From positions 113,119 through 177,118 of the forward strand of contig CAZWKN010000002.1 in the NCBI GenBank assembly GCA_964633995.1: a stretch of DNA of 64,000 bases, read 5' to 3'. Positions 13,728-61,617 of the stretch are shown here, in pieces. The notes below the pieces were generated by a model. It was not told the DNA's origin and did no database searches. It was given only the letters and a program-made list of their open reading frames with translations. The DNA comes from an uncultured Gammaproteobacteria bacterium (GTDB lineage Bacteria > Patescibacteriota > Microgenomatia > CAZETR01 > Amesbacteraceae). Each line of letters starts with the position of its first letter. Position 1 is the stretch's first letter. The position numbers and the translations under genes were made by a program.

Positions 13728-13732
13728 TAAAT

Positions 13733-14452: not shown

Positions 14453-14457
14453 AGAAT

Positions 14458-25429: not shown

Positions 25430-25430
25430 A

Positions 25431-30120: not shown

Positions 30121-30137
30121 AGCTCTATTATAGCTGG

Positions 30138-36993: not shown

Positions 36994-37783
36994 CGACCGA
37001 TTTTCCCCAGCCGTTATACCAAATTCCGGCTTCAGTACGATATCTTTCGGATGATGATGAGGTGTTGGGAATATTCAACATTTTTCTAATTGGATATATT
37101 AATGTTTCGATTAGATTTCGATATTTTTGGTTTTGGATTTGTTTCGAACTTTGGCCGTGTTCATGGACGATAGTTACATCACTATCAAAATATACTTTCA
37201 AGCCAGCTGCGCGGATTCGCCGGCAATAGTCCAAATCTTCGTAGTACATAAACACTTTTTCGGTAAATAAACCAATCTTGGTTAATGTGGACTTTGGAAA
37301 AAACATACATGCTCCTGAAACCGCATTTACCTCAGACGTAAGATTTGGTGTATATTTCGGAGTGTTTGTCAAAATTCTAGGTTCCAAAAAAACCGAACCC
37401 TGGGGATTTCCGTTTGGATCGACAAATTTGGGTCCCATGACACCCATGTCCAAATGGCGCCGGGTAAATTCTAAGGCTTTTGAAAAAAAATCTTTAGGAA
37501 TTTGCGTGTCGGGGTTGAGAAGCAAAATATAATCACCCGTCGCCTTCTTCAGACCTTGGTTTACGGCTCGAGGGAAACCTAAATTTTTGCTATTTGCAAC
37601 GATCGGTGCGATTTGCAAATCCTTGGCGACCTGGACTGAGTTGTCTGATGAGGCGTTATCGATGACTATAGTTTCAAGATTTGGATATTTGGTGGCAAGA
37701 ATTGATTGTAAACAACGCTTGAGAGAGTTTGCCACGTTCCAGCTGACAATAATTACACTAATTTTAGAAATTGATTTTTTCAC
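36926..37783 (-). CDS. GT2 family glycosyltransferase (GTG start)
   Basis: VKKSISKISVIIVSWNVANSL...TIVIDNASSDNS...ILLLNPDTQI. Its 3' end overlaps the convergent GT2 36118..36993 by 68 nt. Confidence 0.8.
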   Translation of the reverse strand: MKKSISKISVIIVSWNVANSLKRCLQSILATKYPNLETIVIDNASSDNSVQVAKDLQIAPIVANSKNLGFPRAVNQGLKKATGDYILLLNPDTQIPKDFFSKALEFTRRHLDMGVMGPKFVDPNGNPQGSVFLEPRILTNTPKYTPNLTSEVNAVSGACMFFPKSTLTKIGLFTEKVFMYYEDLDYCRRIRAAGLKVYFDSDVTIVHEHGQSSKQIQNQKYRNLIETLIYPIRKMLNIPNTSSSSERYRTEAGIWYNGWGKSVVMALVSWTGQKFRKLFANNTST

Positions 37784-45077: not shown

Positions 45078-46436
45078 GTGAAAACAGTGTGGCCGGTTTT
45101 AGTAATTTTAGCTATTTTTCTTACTTACATACACCTAAACCAGAGTTTTGCCCCCTACCCCAGTGAATTTGGACCACTCTGGATGGGCAAGACGAGAATT
45201 CCGGGATTGGTAATTAGTTGTTTGGCACTAAGTGTATTTGGATTATGGCTTTCTCGAACCGAAAAAAAAGTCGCCGTGGTATCTACGATGTTTTTGGGTA
45301 CTAGTTTATGGTGGATGTTATCGTCTCTTTTTTATCCCCTAACCGGCCTGACTTTTTTGGCTATTTGTCTGGTGCTGCTATTTGAAAACAAAGGCCTAAG
45401 ATGGCTGCTTTTGGTGATATTGGCATTAAGTGGTTTGATGGGAACAATGTGGGGATTGGTATATTCAACTCATAAAAAAGATTGGTTATTACTGGTTATT
45501 GTGGTGTTGATTGGAAGCCGGGCCGTGCTTACAGATAATGCATGGGTTGCTGCGCAAACAACTATCCCCAAAATAGCTGAAGAGGTCAGGGTTAGGATGC
45601 AGGAAGAGTTTAAGGTGAATGGATATAACATGATATGGCCGTTTAGAGTAAAACTTCTGGGATATAATACGTACTATTTTGCTGTCCGAGAAGGATACAA
45701 GGAACTTGTTAAAGTAATGGATTTTGATTTTTTGACTAGTCCTGGTCAGCAAAGCGCTACAATTAGCAGAGGGCTATGGACCGCCAAAGGGCTACCTGTT
45801 GTTTACTTTTGGTTGGTTTTATTGGCGATATGGGGACTATTTAATCGCGAAACTGTTTCTGATCAACTTAAAAAAACTAGTTGGATCCTGCTTGTGTGGG
45901 GACTGTTGGCTGGGATGGTTAGCCCTGGTCCCAAATTGGTTCAGTCGGCGATCGGAGTGGCTGCGTTTGTAGCAATCTGGGCTGGAGTGGGATTTATTAA
46001 TCTTAGAAATATGGGGAAAATTGTAGTGGTTGTGATTGGTTCATTGGGAATAACTTTTGGAACATGGCATCTGTTGACACATGAACTGTATTGGAGAGAC
46101 AACCGTCCATGGGTGTTTGAACAAATGGCAAAATCTGCAGTTAAACATGGGGCAGGAAGACCTGTCGTGGCTTCTAGCCTATTGGGGGATCCGAGCTCTT
46201 ATTTCACATCGCAAGCCACATTTAGACATTTTGATCTGACGACCGAAAAACTGGATAAAGAAATTGTCTATATAGGTTTACCTGGAGAGTTCTTAGGTGA
46301 CCGGAGTAAAAAGGGAGATAATCATTTTGAAAGCTCGTGGCTACCATCAGAGATGAAACTGCTAGAAACGATTCCAATTCACGACACGGTTAGTTTTGGT
46401 AATGGAGACTCTATATGGGTAGTCGAAACAAAGTAA
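45078..46436 (+). CDS. Polytopic membrane protein with C-terminal soluble domain; unknown (GTG start)
   Basis: About 10 TM helices, then a ~110-aa hydrophilic tail. First gene of the plus-strand membrane-protein operon. Confidence 0.5.
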   Translation: MKTVWPVLVILAIFLTYIHLNQSFAPYPSEFGPLWMGKTRIPGLVISCLALSVFGLWLSRTEKKVAVVSTMFLGTSLWWMLSSLFYPLTGLTFLAICLVLLFENKGLRWLLLVILALSGLMGTMWGLVYSTHKKDWLLLVIVVLIGSRAVLTDNAWVAAQTTIPKIAEEVRVRMQEEFKVNGYNMIWPFRVKLLGYNTYYFAVREGYKELVKVMDFDFLTSPGQQSATISRGLWTAKGLPVVYFWLVLLAIWGLFNRETVSDQLKKTSWILLVWGLLAGMVSPGPKLVQSAIGVAAFVAIWAGVGFINLRNMGKIVVVVIGSLGITFGTWHLLTHELYWRDNRPWVFEQMAKSAVKHGAGRPVVASSLLGDPSSYFTSQATFRHFDLTTEKLDKEIVYIGLPGEFLGDRSKKGDNHFESSWLPSEMKLLETIPIHDTVSFGNGDSIWVVETK

Positions 46437-48013
46437 TTTTTTCCACTATTGCCTTGGCGGGCATCGTGATCATGGGTGGGTATTTGAGAATTACCAGAAT
46501 TTCCGAATCTCCTCCGAGTGTAAACTGGGACGAAGCGGCTCTTGGATACAATTCTCTTGCGCTTTTTAAGACCGGACGAGATGAGTTTGGAAAAAAGATG
46601 CCATTGTCACTGAGATCTTTTGACGATTACAAACCAGCACTGTATTCATATTTAACCACGGGGTTTGTGGCCGGATTAGGCTTAAATGAATTGTCCACCA
46701 GACTAACTTCGATTGCTTCCGGTTTGATGCTGATTGCGTTGATGTATTATCTAGCCACAAAATTGACCGGAAGGCCTGAAATAGGACTGACTGCGGGACT
46801 ACTTATAGCGACAAGCCCTTGGGCAGTGCATTTTTCCAGAATTGCTTTCGAGGCCAACCTGGCGTGCATGCTATATTTTGCTGGCATAGCTTGTTTTGTA
46901 GCTGGATTGACGAAACCAAAATACGGCTACATTTCGGTGTTTTTGATGGTGTTATCAATGTACGCCTATCACGCCCAAAGGGCGATTGCATTACCGACCC
47001 TTGTTTTACTAGGGCTTGTATTCAAGCCCAAAGTTAAAATTGGGTGGCTGCTTGTCGCAGTAGTAGGGCTATTGCCACTTGGGATATCTTCTTTAGTGGA
47101 TCCCATTGGGGCCAGGCTAACTGCGACTAATATATTCAGACTTTGGCCATTCGTACCCTTGGAATTTAATGCTGGCCTGATTGCGTCCGGATATAGTTTG
47201 GTGTGGATGGTAGTGGGCCATTATTTGGCTTATCTATCGCCGGTAAATTTATTCTGGCAAGGTTCCGTTGAGCCTATTTTGAGAATGCCCCATCTGGGAC
47301 TTTTTGTTACAGAAGCACTTCCGTTGTTTATTGCCGGCTGGATAGTTTTACCGAAACAAAAAGCGTTAGCAAAGTTAATTATTTGCTTGGCGGTGCTTAC
47401 TCCACTTCCCGGAGTTATAACTTGGAATTGGTTTTCGGTGGTTCGATCATTGGCTGTTTATCCAACCTGGACACTAGTAATGGCCACCGGGGCAGTATTG
47501 GGCTTTGAAAGTATCAGGGGCAAGTTGGCAAAAATCAGTGCTCTAACACTTACCGTTGTGGTCTTTGGAATTTCCTGTGTGTACTCCATGGCAAGTTTAA
47601 TTTTGTACTACCCCGTGGAAACATATGGAGATTTCCAGCCGGGGTTTGAAAAAAGCGCACCATATTTAGTGGGCCGTGAACCAAGTGTAAGAGAAATTGT
47701 TTTTGACAGTCCCCATATTGCACCGTATATTTTTGTTTTGTTTTACGGCAAGTACCCGCCCGGTAAATATTTCGTTGAAGCAGGGTTGGACAGAAAAAAC
47801 TCAGGAACAGAAGATTATGTTTTTGGTAAATGGCAGTTTAGGAAAATTGATCCTAAATTTGATTTTGAAAAACGAAATGTTATCTTGGTGGGCTCTGTAT
47901 TTAGTATTCCAGATTATAAAGTTGAAGAGCTAAAGCGGGATGGAAAGCTGATAAAGTTAACTGATTTTCCCGACGCTATGGGCTATACTAGCTTGAGGGC
48001 TATTGAGTTATGA
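46415..48013 (+). CDS. GT-C fold membrane glycosyltransferase, PMT/ArnT-like; paralog 6 of 6
   Basis: ESPPSVNWDEAALGYNSLALFKTGRDEFGKKMPL...SFDDYKPALYSY...RLTSIASGLM. Confidence 0.7.
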   Translation: MGSRNKVIFSTIALAGIVIMGGYLRITRISESPPSVNWDEAALGYNSLALFKTGRDEFGKKMPLSLRSFDDYKPALYSYLTTGFVAGLGLNELSTRLTSIASGLMLIALMYYLATKLTGRPEIGLTAGLLIATSPWAVHFSRIAFEANLACMLYFAGIACFVAGLTKPKYGYISVFLMVLSMYAYHAQRAIALPTLVLLGLVFKPKVKIGWLLVAVVGLLPLGISSLVDPIGARLTATNIFRLWPFVPLEFNAGLIASGYSLVWMVVGHYLAYLSPVNLFWQGSVEPILRMPHLGLFVTEALPLFIAGWIVLPKQKALAKLIICLAVLTPLPGVITWNWFSVVRSLAVYPTWTLVMATGAVLGFESIRGKLAKISALTLTVVVFGISCVYSMASLILYYPVETYGDFQPGFEKSAPYLVGREPSVREIVFDSPHIAPYIFVLFYGKYPPGKYFVEAGLDRKNSGTEDYVFGKWQFRKIDPKFDFEKRNVILVGSVFSIPDYKVEELKRDGKLIKLTDFPDAMGYTSLRAIEL

Positions 48014-49371
48014 AAAGGTTTTGGTGGATTGTCTTGGTGGTAGTGATAATGGTGGTCAGGCTTTACAGAATTGATACCCATTCACACTTTATGACAGACG
48101 AATCCTCCGATTTGGTCCGGATGCATCAAATCTATGTGGAAAGGATGATTACCCTGGTGGGCCCAATCTCAGAGGACAGGAGTCACGTTTTTAGCTCGCT
48201 AACATACTACATGCTCTTGCCATTTGCTGTGATGTTTAATTTTGATCCCTTAGGCCCGGTCGTCGGCATGGTGTTTTGGGGAAGCTTAACTGCGATTATG
48301 TTAGCGATGGCAATAAAAAAAATAAACCCGAATTTTACGTTTATTGGAGCTATTTTTGTCTCCTTGTGGTGGCCATTGGTGTTAGGTTCCAGATGGGCAT
48401 GGAATCCAAACCTGGTAGCGTTTTGGATTGTCCTGGGATGGCATTTTTGCCAAAAAAAGGTCAGCTGGATGCAACTTCTTGGTGGATTATTTATGGGCTT
48501 GGCCGTGCATCATCATTATCTAGCCATACTACCTATCGGGGTGTATTTATTAATAAATCGAAACGGCTTTTTTGCGGCTGGATTGGCAGCTGCCTGGTTG
48601 CCTTTTGTCGCATTTGACTTAAGACATCCACCGGGTCTATTTATCATGCGCAGCCTAAACTATTATTCTGGAACAAAACAAGGATTCGAACTGCACAAAT
48701 CAATCCTTATGGCGTGGTCGACTTTTTCCGAGTATTTCTTTCCTCAGATAAGCCAGGTTTTTGTGACGATAGGCATATCTGCGTTGGTTGGATGGGACAT
48801 ACTTCGGCATAAAGCCTACTTATTTGGACTGGCGAATTGGATTGTTGCCTTAGTGGGTTTAATTTTATTATCTTTCCAATTTCACTATGTGCTACCAGTT
48901 GCTGTTTTTTTTGTATTGTGGATTTTTGCAAAACGGAATGGATTTGGAAAGGTTGTACAACTAATCATTATAATTACGATAATTTGCGGGTCGATACTTA
49001 AATTTTCTAAGGAAATTTCCTCGTATTCGCTTTACGGAAATTTAAAGGAGACCAGGCAGATTGTTAAAATTATCAGTGACCAAATTACAACACAAAAACT
49101 TGTCAATCCAAATTTGGCAATTCTGGCTAGTGATGATATATATACCAACGGGAATAAATATCGGGACCTACTATTGGTTAATAACATCAGACTAAGAATG
49201 GCTTCTGAATACGAGATCTCTGATAATTTGTTTGTGGTAACCCAAAAGGATGAACAAACTATCAGAGATGATCCGGCAGCCGAAAGAGCGAAGTTTAGGC
49301 CAGGACCGTTATATGGCTACTGGCAAATTCCAAATTCCAGTTGGAGAGTTTATCAGTTTAATAAATATTGA
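48010..49371 (+). CDS. Polytopic membrane protein, GT-C-like candidate
   Basis: About 11 TM helices; early-loop acidic motif HFMTDESSD; C-terminal ~110-aa soluble domain. Confidence 0.45.
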   Translation: MKRFWWIVLVVVIMVVRLYRIDTHSHFMTDESSDLVRMHQIYVERMITLVGPISEDRSHVFSSLTYYMLLPFAVMFNFDPLGPVVGMVFWGSLTAIMLAMAIKKINPNFTFIGAIFVSLWWPLVLGSRWAWNPNLVAFWIVLGWHFCQKKVSWMQLLGGLFMGLAVHHHYLAILPIGVYLLINRNGFFAAGLAAAWLPFVAFDLRHPPGLFIMRSLNYYSGTKQGFELHKSILMAWSTFSEYFFPQISQVFVTIGISALVGWDILRHKAYLFGLANWIVALVGLILLSFQFHYVLPVAVFFVLWIFAKRNGFGKVVQLIIIITIICGSILKFSKEISSYSLYGNLKETRQIVKIISDQITTQKLVNPNLAILASDDIYTNGNKYRDLLLVNNIRLRMASEYEISDNLFVVTQKDEQTIRDDPAAERAKFRPGPLYGYWQIPNSSWRVYQFNKY

Positions 49372-50645
49372 TGAAAAAGTTTTTACTAATACTGGTGCTT
49401 GTATCGGGAATGTGGCTACGCTTGTGGTTGGCGCCGAAGGCGTTTCATGATGACATATACAGTAATGCCGGTTGGGGTACATGGATTTACCAACATGGCC
49501 CCAAGGGCTTTTATGAAAATAACGTCTGGGTCTATTCATGGCCAACCCAACCCCCACTTATTAGTTACATATATGGTTGGAATAAATCATTTTATGTCGA
49601 ACTGCTGGGGAGAATTGCTTGGATAAATCATCAGGTGCAAAAAATTTATTACGTTAGTTGGCTGGACAACTTCGTACAATGGTTTGCTTTTGGAATCGTA
49701 AATATTGAAATTCCGTTTCAGATAGGCTATTTGATTACCATGAAACTTTTGCCAATTTTTGCCGATGTAGGCATTGCGCTGCTAATGTATAAATTGTCGA
49801 ATAGATTGTTTTGGCCAACGGTGTATTTATTTTTTCCGTTTAGCTGGTATTTGTCTGCTTTGTGGGGCCAGTATGACCAGGTGAGTTCATTGATATTGTT
49901 TTTAGCATTTTTGGCCGTAACAAAAAAGAAAATTGTTTGGCTATCACCTATTCTTGCCGCCATTTCGATTTTGCTTAAGCCCACCGGACTCGTGCTCATG
50001 CCCCTTTTGGCAGGAATGTACATCTGGAAATGCAAATATTGGAAGCAACTGATTTTTGGCGGGTTGTTGGGGTTGTGCGTGTTTACTAAATCCACCAGCT
50101 TGTTTGCCGATCGAGGCGAGTTTGCGTATTGGCACCACACGCTTATTCGGATGGTCTTTTTCAAGTCGGAATTTAGAGTGTCGACAAATGCATTTAACGC
50201 ATGGCGCATATTAATTGGCAATAAGGCAGTGAATCAGGATGCCAAATTTTTGAGCCTTCCTGCCAAATGGTGGGGCTATGGAGTGATGGCCATTTCACTG
50301 ATAATAGTATTTAAAAAATACAGGAAGTGGACTGACCGAGAAATCACTGAATCCGTATTCCTGATATCAGGCTCTGCCTGGATGTTTATGACCGGAATGC
50401 TGGATAGGTATGTGTTTATGGCCATCTTCACCGGATTGGTTGCTTGTATGTACAATCAAAAATTACTTAGCTACTGGGTTGTATTGGCGTTAATTTTTTC
50501 GATCAACCTGTATCACGGTTGGTGGTTTCCAAATGGCTTTGTATTAAAACAAATTTTGGAATGGAATAATGGAGTAATTACGCAGGGTTTATCTTTGGTT
50601 AATGTGTTGGTGTATATTAAGATGGCAAAATTGATTGTGGCATGA
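49368..50645 (+). CDS. Polytopic membrane protein, GT-C-like (DUF2029/GT87-like)
   Basis: FPFSWYLSALWGQYDQVSSLILFLAFLAV...ILLKP. Confidence 0.55.
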   Translation: MMKKFLLILVLVSGMWLRLWLAPKAFHDDIYSNAGWGTWIYQHGPKGFYENNVWVYSWPTQPPLISYIYGWNKSFYVELLGRIAWINHQVQKIYYVSWLDNFVQWFAFGIVNIEIPFQIGYLITMKLLPIFADVGIALLMYKLSNRLFWPTVYLFFPFSWYLSALWGQYDQVSSLILFLAFLAVTKKKIVWLSPILAAISILLKPTGLVLMPLLAGMYIWKCKYWKQLIFGGLLGLCVFTKSTSLFADRGEFAYWHHTLIRMVFFKSEFRVSTNAFNAWRILIGNKAVNQDAKFLSLPAKWWGYGVMAISLIIVFKKYRKWTDREITESVFLISGSAWMFMTGMLDRYVFMAIFTGLVACMYNQKLLSYWVVLALIFSINLYHGWWFPNGFVLKQILEWNNGVITQGLSLVNVLVYIKMAKLIVA

Positions 50646-52309
50646 AAAACATAATTATTCTGGTACTATTCGCGGTCTTGACGTTCCCTGCTTACAAGGC
50701 CTTACGACATCCAGGACTTATATATGGACATGATTCTGAATCGGTGTTATTTCGGTCAATTGAGTTCCGCCAGGCGATAGCTGACGGCAATTTTCCAGTT
50801 AGGTGGTCAAAAAGATTGGACTATGGGTTGGGACAACCAACATTTACGTTTACGTACAATTTGCCATATTATTTATCGTTTGGGCTGGGGCTAGTGGGCC
50901 TTTCGGAGCTCTGGTCATTTAAACTAATTTATGCGCTTAGTTTCCCATTAAGCGCATTTTTTGCGTACTTGTGGCTTAGAAAGCACGTGGGGACAAAGGC
51001 AGCATTGCTGGGAGGACTTTTTTATACTTACTCACCATATCATTTTGCAAACGTGTATGTCAGAGCGGCATTTGGAGAAATCGTAGCTGCCACCGTGGCG
51101 CCTTTGGTTTTTTATGGAGTATTTTTACTGGCTACAAAAACTGACCTTCGGAATATTGCCAAATGCGGGTTGCTGGTGGCATTGATGGCATTAAGTCATA
51201 ATTTCTACTTAATTATCCTCTTGCCCATATTGACTGGTTATTATTTTGTAGTTGCCCGCAATTTCAGAATTTGGACTGTAATTGCCTGGGGCCTAGTGGT
51301 GACATTGGGAATTGGTTTGGCAAGCTATTATTTAATCCCGGCATTTGTATATAAGGATCTGACTTTCTTAACAGATATGGCCAGGTGGTTTTCGGAAAAT
51401 AATAATTTTATTACCGCCAAGGATTTGCTTGCGTCTTCTTGGGGATTTGGGGGTTTAAGACGAGACGGAGGCGACGGGTTGTTATCCATTCAAATTGGAT
51501 TAGTACATCTGGCCTTGGCAACAGGCAGTTTGATACTAATATTAAAAAACCGACTGGCTTCGGGGCAAAAAAAAGTAACTTTGTTTTTTTTGATAGTGCT
51601 ATGTGGAATTGTATTTTTGATGCATAAGGAAAGTACCTTTGTCTGGGACATGCTTCCCATCCTCAAAAACCTTCAATTCCCATGGAGGTTAATGTTTGTA
51701 GTAAATCTGGTAGTGGCATTTTGCATAGGGCTATTTTTTGATCGAAATTTGAAAACGGTGATAGTTTTTACTTTAATTATCGGCTTAATCGGTGTAAGTA
51801 GTAGATATTGGCATGTACATCGATATTTTCCATGGATTGATCCCACCCCCAAAACCATTGGCTACCCCGGGACTTTGACTATGCTCTTTGAAGAGACACC
51901 AAGATGGCATGAGATCCGCCAGGAACCAAATCCGCACTTTTTGGCACAAGTGAGTTCAGGTGAGGCAGATACGTCTGAGTTGGCGTGGAAGACAAATTAC
52001 CAAGCAGTGAGCGTTGATTGTAAACACGATTGTGTAATTGCTTTCAAAACACATTTTTGGCCGGGGTGGAAAGTATACGTAGATTCAAAAGAGACAGCAT
52101 TAATAGACCCTTATGATGAGCTTAGTCAGGGGTTATTGAGTTTGAAAGTGCCGAACGGAAAACACATAGTGGAGGCGAAACTTTCTGAACCTTTATTGGG
52201 AAAAATTGGCGACACGGTTACGATATTTTTTGGACTTATTACAACTATTCTTTTTGTGGCACCTTCCAAATTTCCGTTTCTGAATCGGAATAAACTTTGG
52301 ATAAGTTAA
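50642..52309 (+). CDS. 'PTPS-related/YfhO-like' polytopic membrane protein with C-terminal beta-rich domain; paralog B of 3
   Basis: RHPGLIYGHDSESVLFRSIEFRQAIADGNFPVRWSKRLDYGLGQPTFTFTYNLPYY. Confidence 0.45.
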   Translation: MKNIIILVLFAVLTFPAYKALRHPGLIYGHDSESVLFRSIEFRQAIADGNFPVRWSKRLDYGLGQPTFTFTYNLPYYLSFGLGLVGLSELWSFKLIYALSFPLSAFFAYLWLRKHVGTKAALLGGLFYTYSPYHFANVYVRAAFGEIVAATVAPLVFYGVFLLATKTDLRNIAKCGLLVALMALSHNFYLIILLPILTGYYFVVARNFRIWTVIAWGLVVTLGIGLASYYLIPAFVYKDLTFLTDMARWFSENNNFITAKDLLASSWGFGGLRRDGGDGLLSIQIGLVHLALATGSLILILKNRLASGQKKVTLFFLIVLCGIVFLMHKESTFVWDMLPILKNLQFPWRLMFVVNLVVAFCIGLFFDRNLKTVIVFTLIIGLIGVSSRYWHVHRYFPWIDPTPKTIGYPGTLTMLFEETPRWHEIRQEPNPHFLAQVSSGEADTSELAWKTNYQAVSVDCKHDCVIAFKTHFWPGWKVYVDSKETALIDPYDELSQGLLSLKVPNGKHIVEAKLSEPLLGKIGDTVTIFFGLITTILFVAPSKFPFLNRNKLWIS

Positions 52310-53855
52310 ATTGCGCTAGGTTTATGGCCACAGGCATCAGTTTGGGAATGTAAACGTAAGAGATGTGGTTGGTAGTCAGAAAGTTATTAACCTGATTGGG
52401 ATATGTGCCTGAAAAGAAATCTACGATCTGGAGATGGCGTGATTTCCAGTCGTAGCCAGTTATATTTAAGTTTACTTCATCGGCTAAATATGTTTGTTGT
52501 CCAGAATAAGCGGAAATATAGCCAGTAGATTCATATAAATAAAGTGGCCTGGGAGGAGAATGTTCAAACTTGCTACTTAAGCTCTTGTCAAACACTGGTG
52601 TAAGTACAACACCTTGAGGAAGTCTGCCAAGAAAAGTTAGGGCGGACAACTCCTGTGACGAAATTTTCGCCGGCGGTCTTTTCGGTAGGTAGTGCCTTAA
52701 AGTGCCAAGCGTAGTGGGAATAGTTAACAATACAATCATTAGACATAAGAGTTTATTTGGCCGCAAACTTGCAAATGATATTCCGGCCAACAAACCAAGT
52801 GCAAATTGTGAATAATAAAAAAACTGGATAGTATTCCAGGCTGTGCCGGACTGGGTAAACAACATTGGAATAAACAGGCCAACAACTACAACTGTGATCA
52901 AAAAAATTTGTAGTGCATCCAGTTTTTTTGGGGCCTTAACTAACCCTATTAACCGTGTTCCAAAATTACCCAAGGTAAAAATTAACAAGGCAAGTGAAAA
53001 GGCAGGAATGCCTTTTAGGAGATTAGTGCTAATTCTGTAAGTGTTCAGAGCCGAAAAAAACTTAGGACTATTTAACCGATCGGGGCCCATCATGGTTTCT
53101 AAAAACCAAAGCGGCTGAAAGTGCAGTAGTTTTACTGAAGATGAATTCAATGGCATAAATAATCCGAGTGAAATTATCACTGACGGCAGTAATACTTTGA
53201 GCCATTTTTTATTTTTTAGGCTGCCTAATGCCAACCCGGCAAAACTTAATAGGCCGATGTATATTTTGATTTCCGGTAAAATTGAAAACACTAAAATAGC
53301 CGATAGAAAGCGATTTTTGTGCAATAGTATAAGTCCTAATAATAATAGAGCTAGTGAGAATGCGTAGGGGGGGTTTATGAGTGTAGAGATAGATTGTTGG
53401 GCCCAAAAAACAGACTCCCCTGCCCCCATGACCCATCCAAGGCTTCCTCCAAAATAAACAAAAAATAATGTCCATAAGGCTGCCAACTTCGACTTTTGCC
53501 AACTAAGTATGAAAAAGTAGGCAAGTAATCCGATTAAGGCAGATATTAAAACTGGAAAGATTTGAAAGTATAAGATGGTAACCGGAAGCTTGGTTATAAG
53601 GTGGATGAATGTCACCAATAAATCAAATCCCAGATGGTAATTTTTTATGGCTTCTCCTGCAAATATTGGCATGTCCAAAGAGCCCCTAGAAAGACTCTGG
53701 ATAAGCGATATGTGCCAAATACCGTCGTGCCCATTTGGACCCCAAAAACCCAAGCCATACGAGTAGGTTAGGCCATTTTTAACCATGGTCACCAGCCATG
53801 TTATGGAACCGATAAGGATGACTAGCCAGTGTTTATTTTTTTTGACGAAAGGCAT
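52245..53855 (-). CDS. Polytopic membrane protein (536 aa) directly downstream of the Wzx flippase; possible polymerase/ligase-like or GT-C enzyme
   Basis: About 12 TM helices with a ~130-aa C-terminal soluble domain. No family motif recognised; the context call comes from adjacency to wzx. Confidence 0.4.
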   Translation of the reverse strand: MPFVKKNKHWLVILIGSITWLVTMVKNGLTYSYGLGFWGPNGHDGIWHISLIQSLSRGSLDMPIFAGEAIKNYHLGFDLLVTFIHLITKLPVTILYFQIFPVLISALIGLLAYFFILSWQKSKLAALWTLFFVYFGGSLGWVMGAGESVFWAQQSISTLINPPYAFSLALLLLGLILLHKNRFLSAILVFSILPEIKIYIGLLSFAGLALGSLKNKKWLKVLLPSVIISLGLFMPLNSSSVKLLHFQPLWFLETMMGPDRLNSPKFFSALNTYRISTNLLKGIPAFSLALLIFTLGNFGTRLIGLVKAPKKLDALQIFLITVVVVGLFIPMLFTQSGTAWNTIQFFYYSQFALGLLAGISFASLRPNKLLCLMIVLLTIPTTLGTLRHYLPKRPPAKISSQELSALTFLGRLPQGVVLTPVFDKSLSSKFEHSPPRPLYLYESTGYISAYSGQQTYLADEVNLNITGYDWKSRHLQIVDFFSGTYPNQVNNFLTTNHISYVYIPKLMPVAINLAQFNLSKVYSDSETEIWKVPQKE

Positions 53856-55311
53856 GTGACATTTTTGTTAAGTCAATTAACAATTGAGGTCCTGTTAAGC
53901 CGTATAGCGCAGCCAAAAAGACCACGCCAGAAATTAACACGTTGAGAATTAAGGTCGGCCAGGAAGACGGCAGGATAGTTTTTAAACCTATGGTTATCAA
54001 AAGCATTGCGACAGTGGCAAGTAAAGGCTTGAGGATACTTTGGGAAAATTGAAACCCAGTAATTTTTTGAACAATTACGATAGGAATAATTGAAAATACT
54101 GAAATAATCGCGGTGGCATACGCCACTCCCAAATAGCCAAATTTGTGGGCCAAAACCGGAGTTAGTCCCCAGGCTAAGGCTAACCACATAAGCATCAATG
54201 CGGTGTTTATCTTTACTTTGCCGAGGGAATTTAACGTATTTGAAAGTGGAGTTGAGATACTTGCCCAGGCAGTGTTAATGCAAAACAAGGTTAGGGGAAA
54301 CAACGCATCCTGCCATTTTGAATATTTGGGAATCAGGCGAACCACTTCCGGAGCCAGTATCGCCAATCCTGCTGTAAAAGGAAAAGTTGCAGCGGAAATA
54401 AAAAATAGGGTTTTTTCAAGACTTTTTTTCAGATCATTCGGATGGTTTTGCATACGAGAAAACGTAGGAAAAGTGACTTTGGTAACATTGTCCATAACTA
54501 GTCTTAAGGGCTGTTCTGAATAGTTTCTGGCCCAACTAATGATTCCCACTCCCTCGGTGCCAATAATTTTCCAGACAACTAATTCTATAAACCTATCCTT
54601 GACTACGGCTATAAACGTATTGAGTTGGTATGGCAAACCGAACTTTAACAAATTGTTTAGCGACGATTTTGAGAGCGAAAAGCCAATTGGCCAGGGCGAA
54701 AGAAAATAGATCAGAGCGGTGCCAACGATCCCCCGTAACATCACTGCCCAGGCATAGGCATATATTCCATCGCCCCTCCAGGCAAAAAAGACTGCTACAA
54801 ACCAATAAACGATATTTTCTACCACTTCTACCGCAGCTAAGTTTTTAAATAGCAGATGTCTTTCCAAAATTACAGAGGGGATTGTCTTGAGAGAAGCCAG
54901 AAAAAAAGCAAGCAGTAAGCTATTGAATAAGAAAACACCACCAGCTGGAAACTGGTAATACCGGGCGAGACCGGGAGCCAGAAGAAACATGACTATACAT
55001 CCGGAAATAACTAATATCTGCTGAAGGGTGAAGGTTGTCCGGAGATCTGATACCGTAGGACTGTCTTTTTTTTGAACCAGTGATGCCGCCAAGCCAACGT
55101 CTGAGAAATAACCCAATATTATTACCAGATTGTTAATTGCGGCAAATAGTCCGAATTCGTACCTTTTAAGATAAAAGGACAGAAGAGAAATGCCAATTAG
55201 ACTGATAACGCGGATAACAAATGTCCGACTGATTAAAGTGACTATGCCGGAGAGGGTTCTGGATTTGACGGTGAGTAGATCTATTTCTCCAGCGACCGGT
55301 TCGGAGTCCAT
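53833..55311 (-). CDS. wzx: Wzx-type oligosaccharide flippase (MOP superfamily polysaccharide biosynthesis protein)
   Basis: 492 aa with about 14 TM helices; N-terminus RTLSGIVTLISRTFVIRVISLIGISLL...GLFAA...GYFSDVGLAASLVQKKD, typical of PF01943/PF13440 flippases. Confidence 0.8.
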   Translation of the reverse strand: MDSEPVAGEIDLLTVKSRTLSGIVTLISRTFVIRVISLIGISLLSFYLKRYEFGLFAAINNLVIILGYFSDVGLAASLVQKKDSPTVSDLRTTFTLQQILVISGCIVMFLLAPGLARYYQFPAGGVFLFNSLLLAFFLASLKTIPSVILERHLLFKNLAAVEVVENIVYWFVAVFFAWRGDGIYAYAWAVMLRGIVGTALIYFLSPWPIGFSLSKSSLNNLLKFGLPYQLNTFIAVVKDRFIELVVWKIIGTEGVGIISWARNYSEQPLRLVMDNVTKVTFPTFSRMQNHPNDLKKSLEKTLFFISAATFPFTAGLAILAPEVVRLIPKYSKWQDALFPLTLFCINTAWASISTPLSNTLNSLGKVKINTALMLMWLALAWGLTPVLAHKFGYLGVAYATAIISVFSIIPIVIVQKITGFQFSQSILKPLLATVAMLLITIGLKTILPSSWPTLILNVLISGVVFLAALYGLTGPQLLIDLTKMSHAFRQKK

Positions 55312-55326
55312 GCAGTTATTCTATCA

Positions 55327-56619
55327 TCAATAGCGATAGTGATCAGCCTTAAAGGGCCCGTTTTTGGAGACGCCAAGATATTCCGCCTGATCGGGGGTTA
55401 ACCTGGTCAATTTTCCCCCTAATTGACCAATGTGGAGCATTGCCACTTTTTCATCCAAATATTTAGGCAGCCTGTATACACCCACTTCGTACTTTTTTGT
55501 GAAAAGCTCTATCTGGGCCAAAACCTGATTGGTAAACGAATTGGACATGACGAAGGACGGATGGCCCGTAGCACAGCCGAGGTTGACTAACCTGCCTTCT
55601 GCCAAAAGGATAATGCGATGGCCATCTGGAAACGTATATTGATCAACTTGTGGTTTAATCTGTTCTTTTTTGATCTTTGGGAAATCGTTTAAGGCTTTGA
55701 CCTGAATTTCCACGTCGAAGTGACCAATGTTGCATACGATTGCGGTGTCTTTCATGTGTTTCATATGTTCGAGCGTGATAATGTCTTTACATCCCGTTGC
55801 AGTAACAAAAATATCCGCTCTTTTTACAGCTTCGGCCATTGTGACAACCTCATAGCCCTCCATTAAAGCTTGAAGTGCACAAATCGGATCGATCTCAGCG
55901 ACAAGAACCCTACAACCAAATCCCCTAAGCGACTGTGCACTACCTTTGCCAACATCTCCAAAACCATTAACCACTGCCACTTTTCCGGCCAACATGATAT
56001 CCGTTGCCCGTTTAATGCCGTCTGCAAGAGATTCGCGACAACCATAGAGGTTGTCAAATTTTGATTTGGTGACACTGTCATTGACGTTAATTGCAGGAAT
56101 TTTAAGTTCACCTTTAGAGTGCCGCTGATAGAGATGATGAACCCCGGTAGTGGTTTCTTCTGACACTCCTCTAATATCTTTTAATAACTCTGGATGTTTT
56201 TCGTGTACCCAGCCAGTCAGGTCTCCACCGTCATCCAATAGTAAGTTTGGACCGCGGCCTTTTGAGAACTTAAGTGTCTGATCAGTGCACCACCAATAGT
56301 CTTTCTCGGACTCGCCTTTCCAAGCAAAGACCGGCGTGTTGGCTGCTGCAATCGCGGCAGCGGCGTGATCTTGAGTAGAAAAAATATTACACGATGCCCA
56401 TCTAACGTCCGCACCCAACGCCTGAAGAGTTTCGATTAGCACGGCCGTTTGAATAGTCATGTGCAGTGAACCGGAAATTCTAGCATTTTTGAGAGGTTTT
56501 GATTTTGAATATTCGCGCCTAAGACTCATTAGGCCCGGCATTTCATTTTCGGCAAGTTTAATTTCCATCCGACCCCAACGAGCTAAGGAGAGATCTTTGA
56601 CTTTGTAGTCTTTGGTCAT
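55327..56619 (-). CDS. ahcY: Adenosylhomocysteinase (S-adenosyl-L-homocysteine hydrolase)
   Basis: [28 protein letters not shown]...[40 protein letters not shown]..., the canonical AHCY NAD-binding and substrate motifs; 430 aa. Confidence 0.95.
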
Positions 56620-57560
56620 GAGAGCTTTAGTTCTTGGTGATAATTTTCAAAATAACGGGAAACATACTGTGAAATAGAATATTCGTGAGTCATGGTACCA
56701 TATTTTTCTACAGTGTAAACAGCGGAAACCGATCCCATCTGGCCGCAAGTTTGCAAATCAAAGCCCCGAATAAGCCCTGCGACAAAACCCCCCCTAAAAG
56801 CATCTCCTGCTCCGGTGGGGTCCAAAGAATTTTCTGGGGATGCGGGGGCTATTTCAAAACGGGCAGACGGTGTTTCAATAATGGAACCTTTTTGGCCAAG
56901 TGTGGTAATCAAAATTGGAACTGATTTAACAAGTGCTGAATGGGAAACGGAAAGCTTTTTTTCGATAAGTGATATTTCGTAATCATTGCCTATTAAAATA
57001 TAGGCCCCGGAGGCTAAATCTTTGAGATCCTTTTTGGTAAACGCGTCTATTTGGAAAGCTGGATCAAATAAATATGGTATTTTTTTGTCTTGACATTCTA
57101 GTCCATATTTTTTCATTGCCTCCGGGCTAGTCGGAGCGAGAATGGCAAGTTCGGGACGGGGGTTGATAGTATTTATGGACAAGTCGTTAGCATATTTGGT
57201 AGCACCGGCATAAAACGACCCTATTTGATTGTCGTCCTGGTCTGTAACTACAAAGTAAGAGCCCGTAGTAACGTCCGGAAATGTTTGAATGTAAACTGTG
57301 GAGATCTTTCGATTTTCCAGAAATTTAAGATATGGTGCAAAGTCGTTACCAGCCGGAGCAACAATATATGGATTGACGCCCAAGAGTTTCAAATTGTATG
57401 CAATATTGCCTGCAGTACCCCCCAATTGCTTTTCCAACTTATTGACCAAAAAACTTAGGGAAATTTTGTGTATCTTATCCGGCATGATCCTATCCGCAAA
57501 GCGGCCAGGAAAATCCATGATGTAGTCAAACCCCAACGTACCCGTTACAACCACACACAT
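56616..57560 (-). CDS. PfkB-family carbohydrate/nucleoside kinase, most likely adenosine kinase
   Basis: [12 protein letters not shown]-terminal motif and [18 protein letters not shown]-terminal PfkB signature. Start and stop overlap ahcY (ATGA), which suggests an SAH-to-adenosine-to-AMP couple. Confidence 0.8.
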
Positions 57561-57569
57561 ATCAAAAGA

Positions 57570-59204
57570 TTATATACGTTTAACTAAAAAATACACCAGA
57601 CACAAAACAGCCCCAAGTGAAACTAAGTTACTTAAAATCCGAATAGGTGTGTCGGTAAACCTGGCCACCAGATCGTGACTGCCCGGGGAAACTGTTAACT
57701 GCATACGACCAAGCAATTTGTCCGAAGTGTGATCAACTGTAACCTCTTTTCCATCTAACCATATTTTCCAACCGGGAAAATAAAACGTCTGAAGTTCGAT
57801 AGTGGTGGGTAGTGAATCAATGTTGACTCGATAATGTTGAAGATTGGACTTTTTGGAGATTCTAGTAAAGCTCCCTTGTCCAAAAATGTTTATGTCATCC
57901 CCTGCCTGATCAGGCGGAGGCAGTTTGGCTGATATGGGCAAATAATCGAAAATACTGGCAGTAATTAGAGCTTGCCAGGATTTGCCTGAAAACTTTTCTT
58001 GGTCAGTCATGGTGGGAAACCACTTGTCTGGATGGAAATAATTGGCGTTTAATAAGAGGAGAAGAGTTAAAGAGCAGGAGAGTATAAGTTTATTTTTTGT
58101 AAGTAAGGCAAAAGCTCCCGCAAGAAACGAAGCAGAAAAAGCTGCCAGAGTCATAAATCTCCAAGGAAATTGTAGGTATTGAATAGGCGGAATTAGTTTC
58201 CAAATAAATGTTGATTTCGAGTGGGCCATGAACAAGCTACCAAGAACACACATGGCAAGAAACAAGATCGTAAACTTGTGATCCTTGAGTTGTTTTACAA
58301 ACGGCAAAGAAACTAAGACAATAGTTGGGACAATCCAATGCAGAAAGCCTAAGGCGAAACTCATGCCATCTTTTGGCCCCAACAGAGATGGGCCATAGCC
58401 CCAGTTAATGTTAAAAAATAGTTGATTTAGATCCGCAAAGTGGGCTAGGTAGTTGAAATAGCCAACAACAATAGACTCGACGTGAGCAAACTTGGCTTCT
58501 AATAAAACTGGGATAGTAAAAAATGCGGCCAGGCATAGCGCTAAGACCGCAGAGAACGCTAAAGACACATATGTCGTAAAGCTGGACCTAAACCTTATAA
58601 GCCAAAACAGACACCAAATAATTAAAACCGGAGCAAAAATCATAAGCATGGGATTGTGAGACAGCATTAAACACGCGACCGACACTCCAACCCCCACAAT
58701 CCAATACCTCACCCCAGTTTTTATTAAACGATAGGTGGTCCAGAAGATAAGCGGGTAAAAGGCCATGGCCCAAAACTCGTTCATCGCCCCTCTGACATAA
58801 AAATCGACAGAATGATACGGAGCGTAGGTATAAAAGGCTGCTGAGATTAGTCCTCCGGTTCTACCCCAAAACTCTTTGCCCAATAAATACATATTTATTG
58901 CGCAGATGCCAAACCCCAATATCCCAACTAGTTTTACAATGTCGATATATTGTAGATTTAACAATCTGAATGGCTGACCAATTAGATAAGGCAAGGGAGG
59001 GTAATAATTAAACAGAGGATACCCGTACCCATAGCCCATATCCGGAACCCAACGGCAAGGAATTTGGTAGTCCTTAAAGCATTTGTCCAGTTGATATTGG
59101 CGCATTGATTGTAAGTCGTCGTGCATGGTGAAATATCCTGGTTGCATCAACCAGGATATTGCCGGTAAAATTAAAAGTAGGAGCCAAAAAAAATCTTTTT
59201 TCAT
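57570..59204 (-). CDS. 'PTPS-related/YfhO-like' polytopic membrane protein; paralog C of 3
   Basis: GYFTMHDDLQSMRQYQLDKCFKDYQIPCRWVPDMGYGYGYPLFNYYPPLPY. Confidence 0.45.
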   Translation of the reverse strand: MKKDFFWLLLLILPAISWLMQPGYFTMHDDLQSMRQYQLDKCFKDYQIPCRWVPDMGYGYGYPLFNYYPPLPYLIGQPFRLLNLQYIDIVKLVGILGFGICAINMYLLGKEFWGRTGGLISAAFYTYAPYHSVDFYVRGAMNEFWAMAFYPLIFWTTYRLIKTGVRYWIVGVGVSVACLMLSHNPMLMIFAPVLIIWCLFWLIRFRSSFTTYVSLAFSAVLALCLAAFFTIPVLLEAKFAHVESIVVGYFNYLAHFADLNQLFFNINWGYGPSLLGPKDGMSFALGFLHWIVPTIVLVSLPFVKQLKDHKFTILFLAMCVLGSLFMAHSKSTFIWKLIPPIQYLQFPWRFMTLAAFSASFLAGAFALLTKNKLILSCSLTLLLLLNANYFHPDKWFPTMTDQEKFSGKSWQALITASIFDYLPISAKLPPPDQAGDDINIFGQGSFTRISKKSNLQHYRVNIDSLPTTIELQTFYFPGWKIWLDGKEVTVDHTSDKLLGRMQLTVSPGSHDLVARFTDTPIRILSNLVSLGAVLCLVYFLVKRI

Positions 59205-60755: not shown

Positions 60756-61256
60756 TTAAATAATAACCATTATAAGTATAGCCGAAATTAGCAAGACTAT
60801 TTCTAACACAACATTCGCCTTTGCCTTTTTAAGATAATTACTGATTATCATTTTATTGCCAGCGACCCGTTTTTCTTTTGAAGTAAATGTCGTGAAGGGA
60901 TAACCCCAGTTAATTTGAGGATAGCTACTTACTTCCTGAAGCCCTAGTTTACAAAACCAATATCCGATGTCATCTAATATTAGATGAAGCAATAGTGAAG
61001 CTAATATTAAAATGTTAAAATCAAAAAAGTATGAAAAAACAACCCATGCCACAATAGCAAACAGGGGGGTATGGGTTATCAAATCATGGTGTTGGTCCCC
61101 TCTTTTTCCAGTTACAAACCCCACCAGTAAATCTAAATCCAAGACATTTCCAAAAACAATTATTTTAAAAAGATCCATTGAAGAAGGTTCGTATCCAAAC
61201 AGCCGTGGCGACTGGGCCAAGATGTAGGACGCGGCTATGTGGCCAATGAATAGCAT
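60756..61256 (-). CDS. Small integral membrane protein, DUF457/YdjM-like metal-dependent hydrolase family (tentative)
   Basis: Probable start M28 MLFIGHIAASYIL...; His/Asp-rich DQHHDLITHT; four TM segments. Track ORF starts at 61337 and would overlap the upstream gene by 77 nt. Confidence 0.4.
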   Translation of the reverse strand: MLFIGHIAASYILAQSPRLFGYEPSSMDLFKIIVFGNVLDLDLLVGFVTGKRGDQHHDLITHTPLFAIVAWVVFSYFFDFNILILASLLLHLILDDIGYWFCKLGLQEVSSYPQINWGYPFTTFTSKEKRVAGNKMIISNYLKKAKANVVLEIVLLISAILIMVII

Positions 61257-61260
61257 GTAT

Positions 61261-61617
61261 TTATTGAATATCTGTTTTTTTGATAATACTGGTAAGGATG
61301 TAGGTGAGTTCTTTAGATTCTTGAAGAAGAGCATCAAACTCTAGGTCGGTAAATTCTACTGCCTCTTTGAGACCGGCAATCCAGATGGAAAACTCCCTTA
61401 GTTCTTTGCGGGATGTTTTTAGACATTTGACAAAATCTTTTTTGCTCATGGCCTCACTGGCTTCACAATAATTTGCGCCAGCTGAACCCGAAGACGAGAC
61501 CAACTGGGGAATTAGGCGGGCTGTTAGTGGTGTAACTTTAATCTTCTTACAAAGCCTAATTGTTCGTAGGTGAAAACTTTTAAATCTTTCTTCAAGATTT
61601 TGGATTTTATTTTCCAT
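61261..61617 (-). CDS. Four-helix-bundle protein ('23S rRNA intervening-sequence protein' family, TIGR02436/PF05635-like)
   Basis: 118 aa; ...PQLVSSSGSAGANYCEASEAMSKKDFVKCLKTSRKELREFSIWI... matches the family hallmark (S-GANI-EG...S-KDF-..L.IA.GS..E). Confidence 0.65.
   Translation of the reverse strand: MENKIQNLEERFKSFHLRTIRLCKKIKVTPLTARLIPQLVSSSGSAGANYCEASEAMSKKDFVKCLKTSRKELREFSIWIAGLKEAVEFTDLEFDALLQESKELTYILTSIIKKTDIQ

Follow-up and report, generated by a model that had tools for sequence, protein, structure and literature searches.

A predicted adenosine kinase–S-adenosylhomocysteine hydrolase gene pair at a patescibacterial glycan locus is probably a housekeeping module

Every SAM-dependent methyltransferase releases S-adenosylhomocysteine (SAH) as an inhibitory by-product. 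In the 64-kb stretch of DNA analysed here (hereafter called the window), genes for a predicted SAH hydrolase, AhcY, and a PfkB-family kinase, AdoK, are found in a very large envelope-glycosylation region that also harbours five methyltransferase genes. This raises the question of whether the pair is a dedicated part of the glycan locus or serves the cell in general. The relevant features are the following:

2..619, 607..2631, 3650..4336, 8564..9358 and 14458..15297, minus strand: five class I SAM-dependent methyltransferase genes, interspersed with GT2, GT4 and GT-C genes
53833..55311, minus strand: gene for a Wzx/MOP-family flippase (PF13440, 168 bits, and PF01943), the downstream neighbour of the pair, on the right side of the junction
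55318..55323, minus strand: TAGAAT hexamer, candidate -10 element, 6 nt before the ATG start codon of wzx
55327..56619, minus strand: ahcY, coding for a 430-aa S-adenosyl-L-homocysteine hydrolase of the long type, whose nucleobase motif is HxTxQ and whose C-terminal tail reads ...KADHYRY
56616..56619, minus strand: ATGA start/stop overlap of adoK and ahcY, read directly from the sequence, with the TGA stop codon of the kinase gene over the ATG of ahcY
56616..57560, minus strand: adoK, coding for a 314-aa PfkB-family nucleoside kinase (PF00294, 129 bits)
57570..59204, minus strand: gene for a PTPS_related/YfhO-like, GT-C-type membrane protein (PF10131, E=3.4e-5), the upstream neighbour of the pair, on the left side of the junction

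Our analyses confirmed that adoK and ahcY form a genuine pair of overlapping genes, predicted from their sequences to encode an adenosine kinase and an SAH hydrolase. The ATGA overlap and the location between a GT-C gene and a Wzx flippase gene, both reported in an earlier sequence-only reading of this DNA, are correct, with gaps of 9 nt between the GT-C gene and adoK, -4 nt between adoK and ahcY and 15 nt between ahcY and wzx. The PF10131 score of the GT-C-like protein (23) is below the cutoff of 26.4, and its orthologues in two related loci, L081 and L083, match this signature; the NCBIfam MOP flippase match of Wzx is also below cutoff. The same reading placed the five methyltransferases alongside the pair. 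All five indeed harbour class I SAM-methyltransferase domains (Methyltransf_11/25/23/31) above the Pfam cutoffs, but 'alongside' overstates their proximity, as their genes (2..15297) are 40-55 kb away from ahcY. None of the five passes an NCBIfam equivalog model.

Co-expression of the pair with the glycan genes is likely, given the tight packing in a co-directional run of 11 genes. A promoter or terminator proper to the pair was considered and rejected: consensus promoter scans showed no enrichment over shuffled sequences, and no terminator-like site was found from the GT-C gene to wzx. Most orthologous loci keep a TAAAAT-like hexamer 6-8 nt ahead of the wzx ATG, irrespective of what precedes it, and the TAGAAT of the window might mark a transcription-unit boundary as a candidate promoter. 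An SAH riboswitch or another regulatory RNA was similarly discarded, with no Rfam match at the gathering threshold in the whole window. The GC contents of ahcY (0.451), adoK (0.419) and the window (0.402) differ to an extent that is unremarkable for conserved enzymes, and recent horizontal acquisition was not retained on grounds of composition. Of note, a 4-kb Logan contig displays the same ahcY-wzx arrangement.

We collected relatives of the kinase at an identity of at least 50% from 25 GTDB species representatives, 21 of which had enough flanking sequence. A co-oriented ahcY gene is present within ~1.7 kb downstream of the kinase gene in 20 of these 21 species, and the pairing was also found in Buchananbacteria, Saccharibacteria, Anaerolineae and Steroidobacteraceae. 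The ATGA overlap is specific to this genome, as the two genes are separated by 12 nt in L081 and L083 and are spaced in other relatives from an 11-nt overlap to ~1.7 kb. The usual context of the pair is YqeY-YbeY-DnaX-YbaB-PfkB-AhcY-...-Prs-RecR, without glycan genes (L015, L084, L088, L089, L090 and L092/L093), with an additional cystathionine-beta-synthase-like gene in the L092 neighbourhood; the context in L085 is RpiB-Rpe-LOG-PfkB-PfkB-AhcY-Cmk. The glycan genes of the window flank the pair in none of 80 GTDB loci. Our literature search found no paper describing an adoK-ahcY operon in Patescibacteria. The pair is a conserved housekeeping module in relatives where no glycan genes surround it, in substance an outcome that the sequence-only reading had named beforehand as speaking against its own proposal, and the view that the pair is functionally part of the glycan locus is not supported.

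The glycan locus is itself found without the pair. Orthologues of the PMT2-PTPSrel-Wzx-membrane protein-GT2 locus were identified in 20 metagenomic contigs, none of which carries adoK-ahcY, and this lack of co-occurrence argues against a dedicated accessory of the locus. The junction is polymorphic: PTPSrel and wzx are at most 106 nt apart in 10 of these 20 pair-less contigs, and the same place is occupied by an IS200-like Y1 transposase gene in L103 and by MazE and PIN toxin–antitoxin genes in L104. The GT-C/wzx boundary is therefore permissive, being empty or filled with mobile or selfish cargo in other lineages. Only the window, L081 and L083 have the pair at this junction, in line with the earlier suggestion that the arrangement is uncommon. 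The pair and the locus occur independently of each other; adoK-ahcY is not a built-in part of the glycan locus and was joined to it in a few lineages only.

We consider it likely that the pair is an ordinary housekeeping module of Patescibacteria that moved to a permissive glycan-locus boundary in a few lineages, where it would ensure general SAH clearing and adenosine salvage. It counts against this relocation that the pair represents essentially the sole non-glycan metabolic content within the 64 kb, and that its tight packing makes co-expression with the glycan genes likely. Alternatively, a dedicated SAH-recycling pair might have been recruited to the glycan locus to relieve product inhibition of the five methyltransferases locally, in step with glycan synthesis. 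This would be consistent with the presence of five genuine SAM-methyltransferases in the same 64-kb region, with the 9- and 15-nt gaps to glycan genes without a terminator-like site, with the conservation of the embedding in L081 and L083, with a second juxtaposition to unrelated glycan genes in L087 and with the possibility that the placement has more than one origin. However, the methyltransferase genes of the window are remote, their substrates are predicted by no NCBIfam equivalog, and in L081, L083 and L087 the 8-10 kb around the pair contain no methyltransferase gene. In 20 contigs the orthologous locus functions although the pair is missing; one of them is L110, which is closely related to L081 (78-84% identity in four flanking proteins). 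The pair is a housekeeping module elsewhere, and the junction also accepts transposase or toxin–antitoxin genes. Moreover, because SAH and adenosine are freely diffusible, gene proximity brings no local chemistry but only possible co-expression. A dedicated function therefore appears unlikely; should it exist, the pair would illustrate, on a modest scale, how a module that clears a cofactor by-product can travel with a glycan island.

Further points against the relocation come from the distribution of the junction arrangement. The proteins flanking the pair in the window share 44-59% identity with those of L081 and L083, and the window and these two loci are not sisters in four neighbour-joining trees, which carry no support values. 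The same placement is thus present in two rather divergent lineages and may have arisen more than once. A conserved 15-nt ahcY-wzx spacer was dismissed as proof of a single insertion, because the TAAAAT-like element also precedes wzx in loci without the pair. In L087 the pair adjoins a different, non-orthologous glycan cluster, and the repeated juxtaposition of the pair with glycan genes could reflect selection. It is conceivable, but we find it quite improbable, that in a few Microgenomates lineages adoK-ahcY was captured at the GT-C/wzx boundary, possibly more than once, owing to an advantage of being co-expressed with a heavily methylating glycan pathway; the captured pair could be a second copy. 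The junction kinases of L081 and L083 share 73% identity, as compared with 84-93% for their flanking proteins, and the presence of a second copy beside a housekeeping one might explain this faster divergence. If the capture took place, the pair would represent a metabolic cassette for relief of product inhibition serving as a glycan-island accessory. In our preferred reading, the relocated housekeeping module is presumably present in a single copy in this genome.

These interpretations depend on the reactions catalysed by the two enzymes, starting with the kinase. Judging from sequence comparisons, the 314-residue PfkB protein is most likely an adenosine kinase of the Mycobacterium tuberculosis Rv2202c type. 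It harbours the PfkB hallmarks, i.e., the GG dipeptide and the C-terminal DxxGxGD catalytic/anion-hole motif, and the GGTAGN motif reported earlier is located at residues 47-52. Residues D12, G47-G48, N52 and D247-P-T-G-A-G-D253 are invariant among 121 members of the kinase family. Its best match in the PDB is the M. tuberculosis adenosine kinase (2PKF/4O1G), with E=2e-56 over the full length (residues 1-305) and 35% identity, followed by the B. thailandensis nucleoside kinase (3B1R, E=1e-49) and M. jannaschii MJ0406 (2C49, E=7e-34). Among the positions taken as adenosine contacts of the M. tuberculosis enzyme, D12, S36, F37, G48, N52, F116, Q173 and D257 are kept and three are changed (S8 to T, F102 to Y and Q172 to F); Q172 being presumably an adenine contact, its replacement by Phe is a point against this assignment.

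The PfkB protein might instead be a sugar kinase (ribokinase, fructokinase or sugar-1-P-forming) that supplies glycan precursors, its adjacency to ahcY being coincidental. PfkB is mainly a family of carbohydrate kinases, the gene is found within a glycan locus, and no curated equivalog model scores above its cutoff with this protein. Nevertheless, we regard a sugar kinase as highly improbable. Its best structural relatives over the full length come from adenosine and nucleoside kinases rather than ribokinases, and PDB chains deposited as ribokinases and not known as nucleoside kinases yield E values of 5e-8 or weaker. Ribokinase equivalogs fail by wide margins (TIGR02152, 71 bits for a cutoff of 299.65; NF008353, 26.5 for a cutoff of 341), and fructokinase and other sugar-kinase equivalogs are also far below their cutoffs. 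Thr49, which is conserved in 116 of the 121 family sequences and replaced by Val in 5, is found where the essential Lys of ribokinases (GGKGAN) would be, an equivalence set by motif register, not structural superposition. In human ribokinase this residue, K54, is essential and binds ribose, and the K54A and K54N variants are inactive (PMC12621476). Finally, the co-oriented, SAH-type ahcY found within ~1.7 kb in 20 of the 21 close species, independently of glycan genes, associates the kinase with an adenosine-producing enzyme. Comparing adenosine kinase with ribokinase features, a check proposed in the sequence-only reading, thus places the kinase on the adenosine side.

The earlier description of a canonical AhcY is well founded. 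The protein matches the TIGR00936 equivalog with 636.2 bits, above the cutoff of 497.6, over residues 5-422 of 430, and it harbours both PF05221 (AdoHcyase, substrate-binding) and PF00670 (AdoHcyase_NAD, NAD-binding). Its end-to-end alignment with rat SAH hydrolase over 428 residues shows 71% identity. The regions of H54, D130, K185/D189/N190, H300 and H352 and the C-terminal K/Y tail are kept, with residue roles drawn in part from literature cited in PMC10978960. The nucleobase motif is H53-M-T-I-Q57. HxTxE(Q)/HxTxQ(E) motifs characterize the SAH-preferring bacterial and eukaryotic enzymes, and HxExK those that prefer S-inosyl-homocysteine (SIH) (PMC10978960); the protein has the SAH-preferring signature and is a predicted SAH hydrolase. 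Most sister Microgenomates have a short, archaeal-like, HxTxE type of AhcY at the same genomic position. Among 49 AhcY genes that adjoin members of this kinase family, 37 code for HxTxE, 12 for HxTxQ and none for HxExK proteins; all carry SAH-type motifs, so that adenosine can be expected as the product of each. An alternative, namely an SIH hydrolase paired with a kinase for inosine or a broad range of nucleosides, as in the SAH route of archaea that depends on a deaminase, was prompted by Gln57 in place of the mammalian Glu. It could draw on the second- and third-best kinase relatives, which are broad-range nucleoside kinases, and on the archaeal-like short AhcY of most relatives. We rejected it as extremely improbable, because HxTxQ is a normal SAH-preferring signature, HxExK is absent from all 49 genes and none of the annotated neighbourhoods shows a deaminase gene.

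We propose the following scheme for the pair in its host, a bacterium that would belong to the Microgenomates (Patescibacteria/CPR). AhcY would hydrolyse SAH to adenosine and homocysteine, and the kinase encoded by the overlapping upstream gene would convert adenosine to AMP, drawing forward the thermodynamically unfavourable hydrolysis and salvaging the nucleoside. The logic of this chain of reactions, already put forward in the sequence-only reading, is supported. The two genes move as one unit across Patescibacteria, and in this lineage the unit is located where the GT-C operon borders on wzx; read-through from the GT-C genes upstream probably ensures its transcription. It would thus serve every methyltransferase of the cell, including those of the glycan locus, without being dedicated to the latter.

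These findings matter little beyond annotation. The conservation of the operon supports adenosine kinase as the annotation of these 'carbohydrate kinase family proteins'. The pair and the surrounding locus are each conserved, yet only a few lineages have them joined, and the junction concerned also takes transposase and toxin–antitoxin genes. This calls for caution, as deducing function from gene neighbourhood is risky in the small, gene-dense genomes of the CPR.

Each of the two proteins has well-characterized counterparts. AhcY is collinear with rat and human SAH hydrolases (PDB 1B3R/1LI4), starting at residue 4 and ending with the Lys/Tyr tail of the C terminus; all lack a 40-residue insert, and they have in common one motif of 19 residues and GHPSFVMS. 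The mammalian enzymes have HxTxE whereas AhcY has HxTxQ, the Gln variant being accepted in the SAH-preferring signature (PMC10978960). M. tuberculosis AdoK, the closest solved relative of the kinase, shares with it the N-terminal lid segment with S36-F37, D12, GG-x-x-G-N52, F116, Q173 and the DPTGxGD catalytic motif. They differ in overall sequence, with only 35% identity, and the Tyr and Phe that replace F102 and Q172 of the M. tuberculosis enzyme are found throughout the CPR family. A further difference is that adoK is not known to adjoin sahH in M. tuberculosis. This PfkB subfamily also includes MJ0406 and the B. thailandensis kinase, which score lower than M. tuberculosis AdoK. According to the title of Hansen et al. 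2006 (cited in PMC10248530), the former is a broad-specificity nucleoside kinase. The CPR kinase is unlikely to have this as its main role, in view of its conserved coupling to SAH-type AhcY.

The pair as a whole follows the logic of the SAH hydrolase–adenosine kinase (ADK) couple of the eukaryotic methyl cycle. Removal of adenosine by ADK sustains SAH hydrolysis and thereby protects the methylation potential, and ADK and AHCY are treated together in the literature. Unlike the eukaryotic couple, that of Patescibacteria would be hard-wired as a conserved operon, with a prokaryotic PfkB kinase of the M. tuberculosis type in place of eukaryotic ADK.

The first description of the window had placed an SAH hydrolase gene (ahcY) and a PfkB kinase gene (adoK) between a GT-C-type gene and a Wzx flippase gene, as a local SAH-recycling unit for a methylated glycan. 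Both ORFs, their overlap and their position were borne out. The source organism belongs to the Microgenomates (Patescibacteria), near Gottesmanbacteria and Collierbacteria, and the features concerned are:

2..15297: five methyltransferase genes, 40-55 kb from ahcY
53833..55311: Wzx/MOP flippase gene (wzx); the pair ends 15 nt before it
55318..55323, minus strand: TAGAAT hexamer upstream of the wzx ATG
55327..56619, minus strand: ahcY, 430-aa ORF
56616..56619, minus strand: ATGA overlap of kinase stop and ahcY start, read from the sequence
56616..57560, minus strand: adoK, PfkB kinase, 314-aa ORF
57570..59204: PTPS_related/GT-C-like membrane protein gene (PTPSrel); the pair begins 9 nt after it

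AhcY is canonical, as had been claimed. It harbours both AdoHcyase Pfam domains, passes the TIGR00936 adenosylhomocysteinase equivalog (636 bits, cutoff 497.6) and can be aligned over its whole length with rat SAHH (71% identity), sharing its catalytic motifs and the Lys/Tyr tail at the C-terminus. The kinase matches PF00294 (PfkB, 129 bits), with the expected GGTAGN motif at residues 47-52. Its best solved relative is the Mycobacterium tuberculosis adenosine kinase Rv2202c (Mtb AdoK; E=2e-56, full length, 35% identity), followed by the Burkholderia thailandensis and then the M. jannaschii nucleoside kinases. With the B. thailandensis chain, deposited as 'Ribokinase, putative', set apart, ribokinase-deposited chains match no better than E=5e-8, for the most part just over the C-terminal portion, and the kinase scores far under the cutoffs of ribokinase, fructokinase and other sugar-kinase equivalogs. 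Many of its homologs already bear the JGI label 'adenosine kinase'.

A 121-member family alignment shows no variation at D12, G47-G48, N52 or the DPTGAGD253 catalytic motif, and most of the residues that we take to be the adenosine contacts of Mtb AdoK are kept, with F102 replaced by Y and Q172 by F. The position of the essential Lys of ribokinases is occupied by Thr in 116 members and by Val in 5, Mtb AdoK included; in human ribokinase, K54 is essential, and the K54A and K54N variants are inactive (PMC12621476). The Lys-to-Thr change and the sub-cutoff equivalog scores favour an adenosine-type over a ribokinase-type kinase. The strongest evidence on the predicted substrate is genomic context: the AhcY proteins adjoining this kinase family carry the nucleobase motifs HxTxE (37 proteins) or HxTxQ (12), both SAH-type, and never HxExK, the S-inosyl-homocysteine type (PMC10978960). 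Since all kinase-adjacent AhcY proteins are of the SAH type, adenosine is the expected product for removal, and SAH and adenosine are the putative substrates of the two enzymes. The idea that AhcY might be an S-inosyl-homocysteine hydrolase, suspected from Gln57, was dropped, given that HxTxQ is SAH-type and that no neighbour carries HxExK.

The entire 64-kb window is a single glycosylation region. Approximately 20 GT2 genes, five GT4 genes and a dozen GT-C proteins of the PMT_2/PTPS_related kind are accompanied by Wzx, an SDR, a carbamoyltransferase of the NodU/CmcH type and the five class I SAM methyltransferases; about a dozen more large ORFs lack Pfam matches, several of them being membrane-protein-like by sequence. 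The pair belongs to a co-directional run of 11 genes, no terminator-like site was found around it, and it may be co-transcribed with its neighbours. No Rfam match was found anywhere in the window, and hence no SAH riboswitch. The methyltransferases are real, but at 40-55 kb from ahcY they do not lie alongside the pair as proposed; none passes an NCBIfam equivalog.

One of them (607..2631, minus strand; 674 aa) has its SAM-methyltransferase domain at residues ~105-218 only, the other ~450 residues being without Pfam match. The carbamoyltransferase (37780..39465, minus strand; Carbam_trans_N and Carbam_trans_C, E=1e-60) suggests O-carbamoylated sugars besides any methylation. Paralogous large membrane proteins are encoded in tandem at 23816..31751 and 45078..52309, comprising five consecutive minus-strand PMT_2/PTPS_related genes and a plus-strand five-gene block, four genes of which lack Pfam matches. 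As GT2_44133 directly follows the unk536 ortholog in four relatives (L100, L104, L110, L125), the plus-strand block is a genome-specific insertion or inversion. Among the GT genes lies a member of the 23S-rRNA-intervening-sequence-protein family (PF05635; 61261..61617, minus strand), 83-84% identical in the kinase-retrieved loci L081/L083, where its neighbours are far less conserved. It overlaps a YdjM-like membrane ORF (60756..61337, minus strand) by 77 nt, and the TTG start of the latter is therefore probably miscalled.

In relatives, adoK-ahcY constitutes a conserved housekeeping module. We inspected the neighbours in 80 GTDB species-representative loci retrieved by kinase. Kinase identity is at least 50% in 25 loci, 20 of which have a co-oriented ahcY at most ~1.7 kb downstream; four others have too little flank and one lacks ahcY. 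The pairing is also found in Buchananbacteria, Saccharibacteria, Anaerolineae and Steroidobacteraceae. The layout YqeY-YbeY-DnaX-YbaB-PfkB-AhcY-…-aminotransferase-Prs-RecR recurs (L015, L084, L088, L089, L090, L092/L093). In L085 (6144..10004), the order is RpiB-Rpe-LOG-PfkB-PfkB-AhcY-Cmk, where RpiB, Rpe, the LOG-family protein and the second PfkB kinase, ahead of the pair, would salvage ribose and nucleotides; in L086, the pair lies in a toxin-antitoxin-rich region. These neighbourhoods are of nucleotide, ribose and sulfur-amino-acid types, non-glycan. The window's Wzx, GT-C or GT2 genes flank the pair in none of these GTDB loci, and the assignment of the pair to the glycan locus is not supported, as relatives keep it as a housekeeping module without glycan genes beside it.

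In L092, ahcY is followed by a PALP+CBS (cystathionine-β-synthase-like) gene (13257..14612) and a class I/II aminotransferase gene (15428..16645), which would dispose of homocysteine. Two AhcY types occupy one syntenic slot (DnaX-YbaB-PfkB-AhcY-...-Prs-RecR) in related Microgenomates: a long type (L015 10980..12275, L092 10001..11296), which combines HxTxQ with an HYRY tail and shares 82-84% identity with that of the window, and a short, archaeal-like type (L084 11509..12777, L088 4172..5431, L090 3451..4719) with HxTxE, about 42-44% identical. The adjacent kinases are 57-65% identical throughout, and ahcY looks to have been replaced in situ beside a vertically inherited kinase. Long-type AhcY is found across many CPR classes at 80-85% identity. 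In L087 (907..9857), a 66% identical kinase and a short-type ahcY lie between a membrane protein gene and another glycan cluster (GT4, hexapeptide acetyltransferase, GT2, Wzy_C, PMT_2, GT4), whose genes share only 22-35% identity with any glycan gene of the window, making this a non-orthologous second juxtaposition.

Conversely, the glycan locus occurs without the pair. A search of metagenome contigs with the GT-C gene just upstream of the kinase yielded 32 loci, 20 of which have orthologs of both this gene and wzx, usually arranged as GT2-PMT2-PTPSrel-Wzx-membrane protein-GT2-GT2-GT2-GT4; several are near-duplicates, leaving about a dozen distinct arrangements. None of the 20 carries a kinase or ahcY gene at the PTPSrel-wzx junction. 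In ten loci, 3-106 nt separate PTPSrel from wzx. Inserts at the junction are:

L103, 8656..9342: IS200-like Y1 transposase (PF01797, E=6e-10)
L104, 8859..9505: MazE-like antitoxin and PIN toxin
L107, 8911..9237: unknown small ORF
window, 55312..57569: adoK-ahcY

In the orthologous glycan locus, this junction is a hot spot for insertions; the pair occupies it only in the window, L081 and L083. Four flanking proteins are 78-84% identical between L081 and the pair-lacking L110, and flanking proteins of L081 and the window 44-59%; in none of four glycan-gene NJ trees (no support values) does the window group as sister to L081/L083. Pair and locus are conserved separately and joined only sporadically. 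Between L081 and L083, the kinases at the junction (both 10001..10942) share only 73% identity, compared with 92% for AhcY and 84-93% for four flanking glycan proteins; the kinase appears to have evolved faster, or recombined, in that lineage.

A TAAAAT/TAGAAT hexamer is found 6-8 nt before the wzx ATG whatever lies upstream (L096, L097, L103, L104, L111, L113, L124, L125). It resembles the -10 box of a wzx transcript with a very short leader or none, suggesting a transcription-unit boundary at the junction that would account for the tolerance of insertions there. We rejected the conserved ahcY-wzx spacer as proof of a single insertion event, because the hexamer is also kept without the pair.

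We consider it likely that a general SAH-hydrolase/adenosine-kinase module was relocated to a permissive operon boundary in a very large glycosylation region, where it is probably transcribed by read-through. AhcY would split SAH into adenosine and homocysteine, and the kinase would phosphorylate adenosine to AMP; adenosine removal would pull the reversible hydrolysis forward, an effect that is established biochemistry. A module dedicated to glycan methylation, as in the sequence-only reading, is unlikely: its co-directional, tight packing with glycan genes, its identical placement in two divergent lineages and the separate juxtaposition in L087 with non-orthologous glycan genes speak for it, but the methyltransferases are 40-55 kb from ahcY, L081, L083 and L087 have none in the 8-10 kb around the pair, and near relatives keep the same locus without the pair. 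We know of no evidence for 'dedicated SAH recycling' with mycobacterial methylated polysaccharides, the proposed precedent.

Our literature search found no paper describing a Patescibacterial adoK-ahcY operon. Both enzymes belong to well-known families, and metabolically they correspond to the classical SAHH-ADK couple known from the methyl cycle; in Patescibacteria, however, it is encoded as a conserved operon with an Mtb-type PfkB kinase, a less familiar form of this couple.
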